From Alphaproteobacteria bacterium (lineage in GTDB: Bacteria; Pseudomonadota; Alphaproteobacteria; JBFXJJ01): a stretch of 64,000 bases of DNA. Location: positions 1-64,000 of the forward strand of contig JBFXJJ010000006.1 of NCBI GenBank assembly GCA_050175015.1, written 5' to 3'. Under the pieces are notes generated by a model. That model had not been told where the DNA came from. It searched no databases and was given only the letters and a program-made list of their open reading frames with translations. The number at the start of each line of letters is the position of its first letter. Position 1 is the stretch's first letter. Shown here one piece after another: positions 1,689 to 53,075 of the stretch. The position numbers and the translations under genes were made by a program.

Positions 1689-1924
1689 AATCATATAGTT
1701 ATAAAAAAAAGCTGTTTGTTAAAAAGAGATAACAATTTAAAAAAATATAAAAATGATGCCTATTAGTTACCCGTACAAACAATATAATAATTAAAATAAT
1801 TATTATTTATCAATATGTTATATGATAAATTTAAAATAATAACAAGAAAATACAATATAATTTAGTTACCCATAAGCTACCCAATTATTTTAACCTAAAA
1901 AAACTATTTATTTTCAATACATTA
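1689..1924. promoter_or_regulatory. Array of 3 IHF-like sites (1689-1701, 1808-1820, 1912-1924) alternating with 2 GGGTARC-like box pairs (1755-1772, 1865-1882)
   Basis: TATCAATATGTTA matches the IHF consensus WATCAANNNNTTR exactly; the other two sites have 1 mismatch; spacing is conserved with switch 2. Confidence 0.7.
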
Positions 1925-2128: not shown

Positions 2129-2212
2129 ATGTTTAATAGAATTAAATTATCATACTTGCTGCTTTTGATATTAACCTTATCATATCCTAGATACAGTTAT
2201 CTTTTATTGTAA
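2129..2212 (+). CDS. Signal-peptide exon of switch 1 (MFNRIKLSYLLLLILTLSYPRYSYLLL*)
   Basis: RBS block GAAAGGGCAAGA at 2115-2126; basic n-region plus hydrophobic h-region; crosses the repeat in the YPRY frame. Confidence 0.85.
   Translation: MFNRIKLSYLLLLILTLSYPRYSYLLL
2182..2200. repeat. Switch 1 distal inverted repeat ATATCC-TAGATAC-AGTTAT
   Basis: Partner of 1628-1646. Confidence 0.9.
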
Positions 2213-43718: not shown

Positions 43719-43820
43719 AAAATTGCTAAAGCTGTTATAATTTTGTATAATGCTTGTAATTTGATGATTTTTGTTTAATCTTAAATTTAGTGAAACTAAA
43801 CCAAATAATTGGGTGTGCTA

Positions 43821-44117
43821 ATGGAAAACAATACTATTACTAGAGTTGATATCAGTGAAGCAATATATCACGAAGTAGGTCTTTCCCGTAAAGATACTAT
43901 GGATTTATTGGAAATGATTATTGATGAAATTTCTTCAGCCCTATCAAAAGGTGATGAGGTAAAGATTTCTTCATTTGGAACGTTTGCTGTGCGCCAAAAG
44001 AAACAAAGAATTGGCAGAAACCCAAAAACCAAACAAGAAGTTCCTATTACTCCAAGGAAAGTATTGTCTTTTAGAGCTTCTCAGCTTTTAAAAAAACGTA
44101 TCAACGATAATAAATAA
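43821..44117 (+). CDS. ihfA: Integration host factor alpha subunit
   Basis: VKISSFGTF, GRNPKT; conserved synteny. Confidence 0.93.
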   Translation: MENNTITRVDISEAIYHEVGLSRKDTMDLLEMIIDEISSALSKGDEVKISSFGTFAVRQKKQRIGRNPKTKQEVPITPRKVLSFRASQLLKKRINDNK

Positions 44118-49120: not shown

Positions 49121-50515
49121 ATGAAAATGACTTTTTATAATAAAATACTACCAATTTTTTTGGTCTCCGTTTTAATCAGCTCTTGTTCTGGCAATGCTAA
49201 AGTTGCAAGAACAGTTGCTAATCAGCAAACTTTTAGAGGTATTGTCGTTTCAGATGAACCACAAGCTACCATTGTAGGGCAAAATATACTAGCCAATGGC
49301 GGAAGTGCTGGCGATGCAATGGCAGCAATGGGACTTGCGATGTCAGTTACAATGCCTTCCCGTGTAGGTTTAGATGGCAGTGGTTTTTGCCAACTCTATA
49401 ACCCTAAAGAAAAGAATGTCCAAACGCTTGATTTTATTACAAACAATTTAAGTGATTCAACTGTCATCCCTGCTCTTCCAAGAGCCTTATTTGCTATTTA
49501 TGCTAAAGCTGGTAATCTGCGTTGGCCTGAAATTGTTTTTCCTGCAGAAAGCTTAGCTAAGTTTGATATGAAAATTTCAAGAGCTTTTGTTAAAGATTTA
49601 GAAACGTTATATCAAGCAAAAAGCGATACTAAAGACATCTATCTAGCTAGATTAATCAGCCATTTCTCATCAAAAGATGGAGAGCTTTTAAAAGAAGGTA
49701 TGCCTTTTTCTCAAATTGAACTAGCTACAGTTTTAGCTGGAATTAGAAATGCCGGAGCAGGAGATTTTTATAATGGCAATTTTGCTAAAAGATATATTGA
49801 ACAAATTTCCAATTTCCATTCAGGTATTACAGCCGAAAGTTTAGCCAATTATACGCCTATATGGCTGGCATCAAACGGCTTTAAGCTTGGAAATGAAATG
49901 GCTTATTTTCCATCTGACAAATTAACATCTGATTTTGGAAGCACTATTTGGAATCAACTAGTCGGTGATAATAACGACACTTCAAATAATATTTTAAACC
50001 TTTTGAACAACAAAAATGAAGATGTCGCATCTAAAACCAACTATGCTGCCAGTGCAATAGCTGTTGATGAAAGCGGAATGGCTATCGCCTGCACCTTTTC
50101 TATGGGGAAACTCTTTGGCGAACAAAAAATATTGCCAACCCTTGGCATAGTAAAAGCTTCAAAAGCCACTGATTTATTATCAGATATAAATCAATTAGCA
50201 AAAGCATCATCAATGATAATCATCAATGAGAATGTCAACGAATTTCGTTTTATTGGATCAGCCACAGGAGAATCTGCCGTTAGTGATTTACTGAAAACTT
50301 CTTTTTACGCAAACTATCAAAAGAAGAATTTAGAAACAGCGCTTCAGGAAACAGCTGATAACGATACAAGCACTATAAATCTTGTATCATGCAAAGAAGG
50401 CTTGCCTCCCTTCCCTGATACCTGTGAAGCTTTAAACGATATTCGAGCCGATGGCTACTTTAGATTTTCTGGAGTCCCTAAAAAAGGGAAAAGACCAGCT
50501 CCTAGAGAACGGTAA
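49121..50515 (+). CDS. Gamma-glutamyltransferase-like lipoprotein (divergent)
   Basis: Lipobox ISSC; GGSAGDA, GAGDFYNG, AVDESG. Confidence 0.75.
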   Translation: MKMTFYNKILPIFLVSVLISSCSGNAKVARTVANQQTFRGIVVSDEPQATIVGQNILANGGSAGDAMAAMGLAMSVTMPSRVGLDGSGFCQLYNPKEKNVQTLDFITNNLSDSTVIPALPRALFAIYAKAGNLRWPEIVFPAESLAKFDMKISRAFVKDLETLYQAKSDTKDIYLARLISHFSSKDGELLKEGMPFSQIELATVLAGIRNAGAGDFYNGNFAKRYIEQISNFHSGITAESLANYTPIWLASNGFKLGNEMAYFPSDKLTSDFGSTIWNQLVGDNNDTSNNILNLLNNKNEDVASKTNYAASAIAVDESGMAIACTFSMGKLFGEQKILPTLGIVKASKATDLLSDINQLAKASSMIIINENVNEFRFIGSATGESAVSDLLKTSFYANYQKKNLETALQETADNDTSTINLVSCKEGLPPFPDTCEALNDIRADGYFRFSGVPKKGKRPAPRER

Positions 50516-50532
50516 TATTTTTGTGTTTTTTT

Positions 50533-50577
50533 GCTTTCCTATGGTTTAGAAACAGCGTACTTAAGCCTTAGGAAAGC
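50533..50577. terminator. Stem-loop after the ggt-like gene
   Basis: GCTTTCCTA...TAGGAAAGC. Confidence 0.55.
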
Positions 50578-50705
50578 CTTTAAACCATTGACAATAAAAA
50601 ACAAAATACTTTAAATAAAAAAACATTTGTTAAATCATTATAACAATTAAAAAACAATATTTAACAAAAATATGATTTTATATAACATATATAAGAATGA
50701 TAAAC

Positions 50706-50777
50706 CTAACTATAACAAGGATAAGCTATAGTTATAATCGAAAACAGCAGACTTAGAAATATATTTTTATTAAACAT
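50706..50777 (-). CDS. Signal-peptide exon of switch 2 (MFNKNIFLSLLFSIITIAYPCYS*)
   Basis: RBS block GAAAGGGCAAGA (50791-50780) is identical to switch 1; 18 codons precede YPCY in the repeat. Confidence 0.85.
   Translation of the reverse strand: MFNKNIFLSLLFSIITIAYPCYS
50707..50723. repeat. Switch 2 distal inverted repeat TAACT-ATAACAA-GGATA
   Basis: 16/17 identical to the reverse complement of 51258-51274. Confidence 0.88.
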
Positions 50778-50827
50778 AGTCTTGCCCTTTCTAAAATAAA
50801 TCCTAATTTTATTTTCTTATTGTCTCT

Positions 50828-50856
50828 ATTCTGCCTTATTTTAAACGGCGTTGCAA
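50828..50856 (-). promoter_or_regulatory. Candidate sigma70 promoter inside switch 2 (TTGCAA-N17-CAGAAT)
   Basis: Starts 79 nt before the leader ATG. Confidence 0.5.
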
Positions 50857-50980
50857 CAATTAAAAAAATGTCATTAAGCATCGTTTAGAGTATTTTTATC
50901 AAAATTAATTTAAAAGTTACATTTTTTTAACATTTAATTGAACTAATTTTTATGCAAAAAAATATCACCAACAGCTAATA

Positions 50981-51215
50981 TAACACCTTGATTATATTAT
51001 ATTTTATTTCAATATTATTTTAGGGTAACATATGGGTAGCAATAATATGCTAATTTTATAGAATATCTTAAAACATTATTAATATAACTTATTGAATTAA
51101 CATACTTTTTATATAAATACTTTTATTTAATGGGTAACATATAGGTAGCTTTATATAAAAAATATATAATAAAAATCTAAAAAATAAAAAATGTAATATT
51201 TATAACATATTGATT
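50981..51215. promoter_or_regulatory. Array of 3 IHF-like sites (50981-50993, 51085-51097, 51203-51215) alternating with 2 GGGTARC-like box pairs (51023-51040, 51132-51149)
   Basis: Two perfect and one 1-mismatch WATCAANNNNTTR on the minus strand; GGGTAAC-ATAT-RGGTAGC twice. Confidence 0.7.
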
Positions 51216-51257
51216 TTAAATATCTTTTTTATATCTTTTTTTCAATACATTTGAATA

Positions 51258-51274
51258 TATCCTTGTTATGGTTA
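51258..51274. repeat. Switch 2 gene-proximal inverted repeat TATCC-TTGTTAT-GGTTA
   Basis: Partner of 50707-50723. Confidence 0.88.
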
Positions 51275-53075
51275 TAGTCAAACAGCCATCACAACCTGCT
51301 CAGAATTACAGGCGATAAACAACAACTTATCAGGTAGTTACTATCTTGCCAACGATATTGATTGCAGTGCGACATCAAGCTGGAACAGCGGTGCTGGTTT
51401 CGTACCTATCGGAAATGCATCGACCCCATTTGCAGGAACTTTTGATGGTAAGAGTTTAACCATAAAAGGACTATACATAAGCAGAGCGGGAATAAACCAA
51501 ATTGGCTTATTTGGGGAAACTAATAGTGCTACAATAAAAGATGTTACGTTGGATAGTATCAACATCACAGGGGGAAGCCGAACCGGCGGTTTAGTTGGAA
51601 GGACTGGAGGTACAACCTCCATAAAAAACTGTGGCACAAAAGGTTATGTTTATGGGCGTGCCGATTACTGCTGTATCGGAGGACTTGTTGGAGGTGCTTA
51701 CGGCAATTTTACTATTGCTAATAGTTATTCTCACGCAGCTGTCAACACTAATGTTTCTTGGTCTGGTGGGCTGGTTGGAGATCACTATACAGGAAAGATA
51801 ATTAATAGCTATGCCACGGGTTCTGTCGTTGGTTGTTCCGCAAGATGCGGGGGACTATCTGGACAACTTGTGAATAGTGGCTCAATAATAAATAGTTTTT
51901 CAACAGGTTCGCTATCAGGCTGTTCATCTTATTGTGGCGGTTTGTTTGGAATATATTATTCTGGGACATCTTCTGGCAATTATTGGGATTATCAAACATC
52001 AGGAATGGCCACCAGTGCAGGAGGAACAGGCAAAACTACAGCCCAAATGCAAACACAAAGCACTTTTGCAGGCTGGGATTTTGAAAATGATTGGTGTATG
52101 CCGGAAGGTGATTATCCACGGTTAAAATTTGAAGATGCTTGTTCCTTGCCAACTTGTACAGGTTGTGCGGTTTTAAGCGGCAGAGAATGTGTTGCTGGCG
52201 ACAGTTGTTCAGGCGAACACCCAAATTGTGTTGTAACTGATAATGATGGCATTTGTGAATGTTCAGCATCTAGCTGTAATGCGGGACGCAGCTGCTCTAC
52301 TGCGGGAATATGCTCTGACTGTGATAATTCTGAGGGGTGTGGCTCTTGTACTTGTGGAACCTCACAAAAGCCGACAGGAACAGGCGCCTGTATAAATGAC
52401 AGCTCGTGCTGTGTTGGTGAATGCAATATGGCAACTGGTGCTAATTTTTGCAGTTACAGTGATGACTTATGCTCCTCAGGAATAGCGTGCAACCGTTCAA
52501 CATTATCTTGCTGTGCTTCCTCCCTTCCTTATTGGCGAAGCAGCGACTGCAAACCTTGTGCCGCCACTAGTGGTTTGTCTGGAACGTGCCAAACTAAGGG
52601 CATGATGTGCAACTCGAATTATGATTGCGTAAGCTGTTTGGCTAATATGCAATGCACCTGTGATGATGGCTTTGTTTCTGATGGTGCTGGCGGCTGTATC
52701 GAGCCTTTATGCTACACCGACAGTGAATGCGGAACCGATAAATGTATCAATGCTGGAGACTACGACGCTTTCTGCTCAAACTGCAGTTCTATCAATAAGG
52801 TCTGGGTTTCAGGATCTTGCGAAAGCTGTCCAAGTGGTTCGACGTATCATAATGGTATTTGTTTATGCTCTGATGGCAAAATGTGGAATTCTGCAAGCAA
52901 TACCTGCTCTAAAAAAAGCGTAATTTCAAGCCACGGGGTTATTGATACCAAGAGTAAGGCAACCGCCATAACACCAGAGAGCCGCTATGACCGCATTAAG
53001 CGCAAAATGAATCGCATCACGAACAGCGCCTATGCAGGAGTAGCTGATAAAGAAGAATTGGAAGAATTAGAATAA
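51258..53075 (+). CDS. GLUG-motif plus cysteine-rich surface protein 2; leaderless body
   Basis: Frame is open 97 codons upstream of the tracked TTG: YPCYGYSQTAITTCSELQAINNNLSGSYYLANDIDCSATSSWNSGAG...; in-frame TGA at 51252; GGLVG repeats followed by a Cys-rich region. Confidence 0.9.
   Translation, partial: YPCYGYSQTAITTCSELQAINNNLSGSYYLANDIDCSATSSWNSGAGFVPIGNASTPFAGTFDGKSLTIKGLYISRAGINQIGLFGETNSATIKDVTLDSINITGGSRTGGLVGRTGGTTSIKNCGTKGYVYGRADYCCIGGLVGGAYGNFTIANSYSHAAVNTNVSWSGGLVGDHYTGKIINSYATGSVVGCSARCGGLSGQLVNSGSIINSFSTGSLSGCSSYCGGLFGIYYSGTSSGNYWDYQTSGMATSAGGTGKTTAQMQTQSTFAGWDFENDWCMPEGDYPRLKFEDACSLPTCTGCAVLSGRECVAGDSCSGEHPNCVVTDNDGICECSASSCNAGRSCSTAGICSDCDNSEGCGSCTCGTSQKPTGTGACINDSSCCVGECNMATGANFCSYSDDLCSSGIACNRSTLSCCASSLPYWRSSDCKPCAATSGLSGTCQTKGMMCNSNYDCVSCLANMQCTCDDGFVSDGAGGCIEPLCYTDSECGTDKCINAGDYDAFCSNCSSINKVWVSGSCESCPSGSTYHNGICLCSDGKMWNSASNTCSKKSVISSHGVIDTKSKATAITPESRYDRIKRKMNRITNSAYAGVADKEELEELE

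Follow-up and report, generated by a model that had tools for sequence, protein, structure and literature searches.

The 64,000-nucleotide (nt) window considered here is positions 1 to 64,000 of contig C6 in a 2.53-Mb, 49-contig, 99.4% complete alphaproteobacterial genome (G000), probably binned from a landfill metagenome, and it contains two loci of the same layout, in which a long open reading frame (ORF) without a start codon adjoins a segment bounded by short inverted repeats. The second of these, termed switch 2, is the principal subject. Its two 17-nt arms, at 50707–50723 (minus strand) and 51258–51274 (plus strand), enclose 534 nt, so that the flanked segment measures ~550 bp, and an inverted-repeat search found them to match at 16/17 positions (94% complementary), as an earlier note on this DNA had stated. 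The left arm, on the side of a short signal exon, reads TATCCTTGTTATAGTTA on the minus strand and comprises TATCC, the 7-nt centre TTGTTAT and the outer half AGTTA; the right arm, on the ORF side, reads TATCCTTGTTATGGTTA and codes for YPCYGY, abutting a predicted signal-peptidase site, GYS↓QTA. With three or fewer mismatches allowed, the window contains three occurrences of the 17-mer, where shuffles lead one to expect 0.38, and the third of these, at 1629–1645, is the ORF-side arm of the other locus, switch 1.

The 5′-truncated cargo ORF of switch 2 occupies 51258–53075 on the plus strand, with 605 codons and a stop (53073–53075), and encodes an N-terminal M26_N-like region with GLUG repeats followed by a Cys-rich C-terminal half. 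The frame begins inside the right arm with YPCYGYSQTAITTC, and an in-frame stop lies 3 nt upstream of 51258. Its first in-frame ATG, GTG or TTG is TTG 51549, which sits 97 codons inside a domain that aligns with paralogs from residue 1; a start at this codon would indeed omit 97 paralog-aligned codons, as the earlier note had it. A start codon and a predicted signal peptide are encoded on the opposite strand, in a mini-exon at 50706–50777 (minus) whose ATG (50775–50777) opens 18 codons, MFNKNIFLSLLFSIITIA, followed by YPCYS and TAG at 50706–50708. This frame from ATG 50777 is 23 codons long and stops directly past the left arm, as had been noticed before, while the 18-codon exon proper ends inside the arm. 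The start codon, ribosome-binding site (RBS) and signal exon thus lie on the strand opposite to the cargo ORF, yet in frame with it across the repeat: exon and ORF share their codon phase (TAT CCT ...) here and at all 12 such loci of the genome. Joined in that phase, 18 exon codons and 605 ORF codons make up the 623-residue product ending at 53075 that the earlier note had derived for the inverted form. By sequence logic only, then, the orientation of the segment would decide whether the adjacent gene is expressed.

Such an arrangement is probably a site-specific DNA inversion switch (inverton) in which an entire 5′ gene cassette moves, flipped by an integrase encoded on contig C1 that acts in trans with integration host factor (IHF); we put the probability of this reading at about 0.7. 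The cassette would carry promoter, leader, RBS and ATG along with the 18-codon beginning of a Sec signal peptide. Oriented as in the assembly (OFF), it would face away from the gene, and the GLUG-domain surface or secreted protein would have neither a start codon nor a signal peptide. If the two inverted core sites recombined, ~550 bp would turn round and the exon would be joined in frame to the ORF, restoring a protein of the form M-(17 aa)-YPxxGY(S/A)↓QTAITTC.

The same anatomy recurs throughout the genome. A tblastn search with the N-terminal domain returned 12 loci whose alignment opens at residue 1 or 2, and none of these cargo genes has a usable start or, in the assembled orientation, a signal peptide. 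Each has an in-frame stop 0–63 nt upstream, an inverted partner of its first 18 nt located 544–585 nt upstream with 0–2 mismatches, and, on the opposite strand, an ATG-initiated exon of exactly 18 codons before YP. The earlier note had regarded switch 2 as a second copy, likewise OFF, and had suspected a larger repertoire with few members ON; switch 1 has the same layout, and the genome-wide count of ON versus OFF paralogs proposed there gave 0/12 ON, with all 12 OFF and a thirteenth, degenerate locus likewise (13/13). In switch 1, the ORF-side arm, TATCCTAGATACGGTTA, lies at 1629–1645 on the minus strand, and its cargo ORF runs from 1645 to 2 on that strand and off the contig start; the signal exon (2129–2199, plus; ATG 2129–2131) reads MFNRIKLSYLLLLILTLS, then YPRYSY, and is ended by the exon-side arm, TATCCTAGATACAGTTA, at 2183–2199 (plus). 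A pattern scan places its two GGGTARC boxes, a motif discussed below, within 1759–1882 (minus).

The thirteenth switch, at C21:16224–16794 (L041:2225–2796), is a cargo-less relic. It retains both arms (centre TGATAAT), two boxes and a degenerate exon; the frame downstream ends after ~37 codons, just before a nucleoside-hydrolase gene.

Aligned with MAFFT, the 12 segments consist mostly of unalignable AT-rich DNA interrupted by sharp conserved blocks at fixed positions: the RBS block GAAAGGGCAAGAC, a TTGnnA-17-CAnAAT element, three copies of TAACAnnTTGAT and two GGGTARC-N4-RGGYA boxes. In switch 2, the conserved leader and RBS block occupies 50779–50791 (minus), immediately 5′ of the ATG. Upstream of it and in the direction of the exon lies a putative promoter at 50828–50856 (minus), with TTGCAA at 50851–50856, a 17-nt spacer and CAGAAT at 50828–50833. 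We infer a promoter from the conserved columns of this element, whose exact TTGCAA is present in 9/12 loci; a sigma-54 promoter was considered and rejected, as the spacing does not fit. The TAACAnnTTGAT blocks fit, on the other strand, the IHF consensus WATCAANNNNTTR. In the 12 segments (6.7 kb) this consensus is matched exactly 18 times in the forward direction and 0 times in the reverse, where ~0.6 matches would be expected from the genome rate of 0.083 per kb per strand; relative to the right arm, the matches group near −285, −185 and −60. The three sites of switch 2, all on the plus strand, are TAACACCTTGATT at 50981–50993 (position −277), TAACTTATTGAAT at 51085–51097, which has one mismatch to the consensus here and is exact in seven other loci, and TAACATATTGATT at 51203–51215 (position −55). 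Interspersed with them are two boxes, putative arm-type sites, found in 12/12 loci at −245 and −137 from the core. Box 1 of switch 2 (51023–51040, plus) comprises the tandem heptamers GGGTAAC-ATAT-GGGTAGC with an 11-nt period, and box 2 (51132–51149, plus) reads GGGTAAC-ATAT-AGGTAGC. Together, the three IHF sites and the pair of tandem GGGTAAC boxes would make the cassette interior an array resembling a phage attP arm. IHF is a likely accessory factor: its alpha-subunit gene, ihfA, lies in the same window at 43809–44117 (plus; 134.9 bits versus a cut-off of 111), ihfB is on contig C12, and both exceed their NCBIfam cut-offs.

A 550-bp segment with short terminal inverted repeats and an AT-rich interior free of long ORFs could also be a miniature transposable element inserted into a gene. 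To this we give almost no credence, because the segment occupies the same codon position in 12 long-diverged paralogs and supplies, in frame, the start and signal exon that belong to the gene itself. Moreover, the interiors have diverged except in the functional blocks, the flanks inspected display no target-site duplication, and the relic is the only copy away from this gene family.

The arms, which measure 12–23 nt across the loci, read TATCCTnnnnAY(G/A)GTTA(T) in the coding sense. The core looks like a tyrosine-recombinase site: a 7-nt centre, TnnnnAY, is bracketed by TATCC and GGTTA, which form imperfect inverted half-sites; TATCC and TAACC (the reverse complement of GGTTA) are alike at 4/5 positions. 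The centre is identical in the two arms at 13/13 loci and distinct between all 13. This comparison was made by script for 12 loci and by eye for the C4 locus, whose arms, set 3 nt out of register by the script, both read TAACTAC. The three NY and the three NN loci differ by synonymous bases within the centre. A mismatch in the outer half-site recurs at 8/13 loci, where the ORF-side arm has G and the exon-side arm A. Being outside the centre, it would remain with its own flank through any exchange. That centres match within loci, in the face of near-saturated synonymous divergence between them, points either to selection for identity or to homogenisation by exchange, and both imply recombination at these sites; since each centre is shared within its locus and distinct from the others, exchange would be confined to same-locus partners. 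One might instead invoke general RecA-dependent homologous recombination between the repeats, without a dedicated enzyme, of which the Campylobacter fetus sap inversion is an example, and it is true that no recombinase gene adjoins any switch. However, arms of 12–23 nt are short for RecA-type exchange, and the half-site and centre structure, together with the IHF and box array, would be left without a role, which makes this explanation highly improbable.

An additional arm was encountered on contig C10, where an exact 18-nt copy of the local switch's ORF-side arm lies at C10:80113–80129 (L042:4114–4130) on the minus strand, 7.4 kb upstream of the switch. It sits between two DUF6782 metallopeptidase genes, with gltX and comEC in between, and its orientation is opposite to that of the ORF-side arm and the same as that of the exon-side arm. 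As it matches exactly the centre of its neighbour, a chance match is unlikely, and a larger inversion or a deletion might be possible.

The cargo proteins belong to a recognisable family. The ORF of switch 2 matches Pfam GLUG (PF07581) at 33.4 bits versus a cut-off of 20.5, and that of switch 1 at 69 bits. For Peptidase_M26_N (PF05342), switch 2 scores 25.2 bits, under the cut-off of 27.7, and its switch 1 paralog exceeds it with 77.8 bits; Pfam finds no peptidase catalytic domain in either ORF. The Cys-rich C-terminal half, ~300 residues with many CxxC-like spacings, corresponds to no Pfam family. It is followed by a conserved basic tail (...RY..IK.KM.RI...) in the 51258–53075 ORF, its paralogs and the database homologs P0006 and P0008, and C-terminal-only copies occur at C11:3845–4780 and C1:47446–48291. 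Homologs P0005, P0018 and P0021 from other organisms carry an ordinary signal peptide that ends in ...CASA directly before QTMITTC, so that the normal form of the family has its signal peptide exactly at the point where the present genes are cut; the mature protein is predicted to begin at about QTA. Inspected by eye, all 12 exons show K/R near the N-terminus, a hydrophobic run of ~10 residues and G-Y-(S/A) before QTA. A lipoprotein signal was rejected: the Cys of YPCY is found only in the switch 2 paralog, and there is no lipobox.

Selection has kept these genes intact. The 12 ORFs are open over 522–902 codons; six reach a stop at 605–902 aa and the other six run off contig ends, so that the family also breaks the assembly. 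In all 66 paralog pairs, compared over the first 140 codons, nonsynonymous differences are fewer per site than synonymous ones (pN<pS), and the corresponding divergence ratio (dN/dS) is 0.12–0.39 in 9 of the 14 closest pairs listed, dS being saturated in the other five. With a median amino-acid identity of 49%, the cargo genes are old paralogs under purifying selection, yet as assembled they can be neither translated nor exported. The proposal that inversion re-joins a split gene, first made in the earlier note, is supported from several sides: the signal peptides of colinear homologs and the layout shared by 12/12 loci, and further the purifying selection on the ORFs and the co-varying repeat arms.

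Several observations weigh against a working switch of this kind. The assembly contains no ON copy (0/12 loci, 0/13 including the relic), and a single orientation at 13/13 loci is also what a fixed, non-switching arrangement would produce. Among the 120 matches listed of 959 there were no ON-type proteins, a search of shorter proteins gave four matches, none with an exon-plus-domain N-terminus, and P0006 and P0008, both from another assembly, have the same architecture, Cys-rich tail included, without a signal peptide. The pattern CCTNNNNAYGGTTATNNTCARACAG was found at 16 loci in metagenome_contigs and 11 in genome_contigs, all of them chance matches, as none proved to be a GLUG gene once translated, and the double-box pattern occurs in 1/401 genomes of the class, namely G000 itself. 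With no related switch found outside G000, confirmation across species is lacking. A generic scan of the AT-rich cassette DNA was uninformative, with nine promoter-like sites versus 7.5 expected and 0 terminators, and it scored the proposed promoter below threshold. Finally, no gene with a PF00589 match adjoins any switch, and what links the C1 integrase to the switches is one shared motif.

The only sequencing run found to contain this stretch (X1, probably the source sample; stored as contigs, depth ~13) includes a 6250-nt contig colinear with 49500–51295, that is, the OFF form, and its contigs show neither strand-changing joints nor loose ends at the repeats. Because contigs drop rare variants, they give no indication for or against an ON form present in a minority; X2 and X3, two further runs, contain almost none of this stretch. 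The N-terminal domain is present in 2/41 relatives, namely G000 and, as a weak match, G013.

The uniform OFF state fits three readings. Each cell may switch on few or none of the 12 genes, as we suppose, so that a 13× consensus assembly records OFF; switching may be induced only under particular conditions; or the system may be frozen, an ancestral inversion apparatus now inactive, with its loci locked OFF and its genes heading to decay. This last possibility accounts for the single orientation of all 13 loci without any ON form, and the C21 locus has already lost its cargo. Yet the intact genes, exons and arms argue against it and render it improbable: 12/12 ORFs (522–902 codons) remain open in a genome of 35% GC, 12/12 exons keep their ATG, RBS and hydrophobic core, and the arm centres match at 13/13 loci despite near-saturated synonymous sites between paralogs. 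Any loss of activity would need to be very recent.

Which enzyme would drive the proposed inversion switch is suggested by the boxes. The genome contains 17 matches to PF00589, in ~15 genes; it has no detectable serine recombinase (PF00239), complete as it is to 99.4%, and a single weak, below-cut-off match to the IS110/Piv type. The box pattern has 27 matches in the genome where ~0.6 would be expected by chance from base composition: 24 in the 12 switches, one in the relic, one on C3, and one at C1:265185. The last lies ~170 nt upstream of a gene for a 424-aa integrase (C1:263738–265012), and looser matching reveals five heptamers before this gene, at −190, −179, −168, −54 and −42. The protein has Arm-DNA-bind_3 (PF13356; 49.7 bits versus 27), SAM_3 and PF00589 (68.9 bits versus 27.1) domains, its translation displays the catalytic R, HxxR, H and Y, and its gene has xerD on one side and lptF/lptD-like genes on the other, without a tRNA in the vicinity. 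We infer that this chromosomal, non-mobile, arm-binding integrase may act in trans on all loci with IHF; taken as a candidate on its motif and domains, it has roughly even odds of being the switch invertase. In a fuller and more tentative version, a domesticated phage-type arm-binding integrase would serve as trans-acting master invertase and form, with IHF, attP-like complexes in the 13 cassettes, each of which would be addressed by its 7-nt overlap and flip independently without cross-locus recombination, giving a combinatorial, mostly silent repertoire of surface proteins whose start codon and signal peptide would be what moves. This version is possible, though somewhat less likely than not.

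A paralog 57% identical to the C1 integrase, also of 424 aa, is encoded at C4:203513–204787 (minus strand), beside a tRNA-like 3′ end and preceded by tandem TGGTTCCTG repeats, and it probably belongs to an integrated island as its integrase. Its different upstream repeats are consistent with enzyme-specific arm sites placed in front of the respective genes. Some other tyrosine recombinases fall into two near-identical sets, three of 354 aa (C3:16689–17753, C21:20517–21581 and C8:36047–37111) and two of 387–388 aa (C10:9317–10483 and C2:85401–86564), and the similar N-termini of the two groups suggest multi-copy mobile elements.

Alternatively, the switch could be real and yet be flipped by XerC/XerD or by one of ~12 other integrase-family genes, the boxes being bound by a different factor, for instance a response regulator specific for direct repeats at 11-bp spacing. 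With 17 PF00589 matches in ~15 genes, enzymes are at hand; moreover, Xer-like enzymes run the mycoplasma vsa/vpma/vsp systems, as stated in the available part of PMC2268961, and, according to the available part of PMC8138268, the recombinases of known switches are "simple" ones that lack an arm-binding domain. Against this speak the confinement of the box motif upstream of integrase genes to the C1 enzyme and the different upstream repeats of the 57% identical C4 paralog, as would be expected of enzyme-specific arm sites. We regard this alternative as unlikely.

The inversion switch proposed here combines traits of several known systems. Integrases of the lambda/P4 type possess an arm-binding domain and use tandem direct-repeat arm sites interleaved with IHF sites, their core consisting of two half-sites and a 7-bp overlap. 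Those systems integrate and excise mobile elements, whereas here the sites are inverted chromosomal ones at 13 places, the integrase gene is not part of a mobile element and what would result is the switching of genes. The E. coli fimS switch is an invertible promoter element of a few hundred bp with short inverted repeats, acted on by the tyrosine recombinases FimB and FimE with IHF as accessory, and was reportedly described by Klemm in 1986. It resembles the present cassette as a small promoter element with IHF assistance, and differs in having intergenic repeats, a single locus and enzymes without an arm-binding domain, in contrast to 13 loci, repeats in coding sequence, arm-like boxes and a candidate arm-binding integrase.

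Closer in logic are Mycoplasma pulmonis vsa (HvsR) and Ureaplasma parvum mba/UU172, in which, as far as the consulted portions of the sources go, inversion joins a promoter, RBS and 5′ coding piece to a promoterless 3′ surface-protein body (PMC2268961; PMC3047005). There, too, the recombination site lies inside coding sequence and the enzyme is a tyrosine recombinase. However, in the account consulted, vsa has one expression cassette (first 714 nt coding) shared by many silent genes in one cluster with an adjacent recombinase gene, unlike the present 12 dispersed genes, each with a private 18-codon cassette and none with an adjacent recombinase gene. A private cassette per gene would permit independent ON/OFF switching rather than the mutually exclusive choice of vsa. 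Dispersed family members, each with its own small invertible element, are likewise found in Mycoplasma penetrans mpl (P35) and in the Bacteroides capsule and surface invertons, which are served by globally acting recombinases, to judge from the sections seen (PMC2268961). Those elements invert the promoter only and leave the coding sequence untouched, whereas here the exchange point would fall within signal-peptide coding sequence and the start codon would travel along with the promoter. More generally, "partial intergenic" or gene-altering invertons, with one repeat in a gene and one outside, are a recognised class that computation and long reads have detected widely (Milman et al., 2023; Chanin et al., 2023; PMC9881135; 10.1101/2023.03.11.532203); the examples in the portions of these papers available retain one upstream part while the downstream (C-terminal) variants are exchanged, unlike the present cassettes. 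The term "signal peptide" is absent from the text of both as far as it was accessible, and their supplementary tables may list similar cases.

Within the accessible parts of the literature, no precedent was found for a private signal-peptide and start-codon cassette for each paralog across a dozen genes, with the same proviso on supplementary tables, nor for locus-specific overlap sequences in such invertons. Likewise, no inverton with an attP-like interior array of arm and IHF sites and an arm-binding integrase to serve it was found in those parts, and a search on arm-type sites, DNA inversion and phase variation found no arm-binding invertase in the material it covered. Among the papers searched, none mentions GLUG together with phase variation. 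The available part of a survey of integrase domain classes holds that arm-binding enzymes mark mobile elements and that switches use simple enzymes (PMC8138268); if the assignment above is true, an integrase of the class so regarded would be serving as a cellular gene switch.

If the cassettes flip, they would offer a compact and leak-proof way to hold a surface-protein family silent, leak-proof because OFF genes have neither start codon nor export signal. Its bearer, an uncultured bacterium from the environment, would be distant from the mycoplasmas and the gut Bacteroides, in which systems of this kind are known. The locus-specific overlaps suggest a simple insulation rule for many sites under one enzyme, a matter of relevance to recombinase-based genetic circuits. 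There is also a lesson for annotation, in that gene callers truncate such genes, as at TTG 51549, or assign false N-termini, as in P0004 and P0006.

Some neighbouring features deserve mention. In the window, a hairpin at 50533–50577 with a 16-nt stem (88% complementary) and a 13-nt loop lies just 3′ of a gamma-glutamyltranspeptidase-like gene and may act as terminator both for that gene and for the outward cassette transcript in the OFF state. On contig C10, four tandem DUF6782 putative metallopeptidase paralogs occupy L042:1969–7099 (C10:77968–83098), one of which also matches the Peptidase_M91 "effector protein" family, and LpxI and LpxB domains are apparently fused in one 582-aa frame at L042:152–1900.

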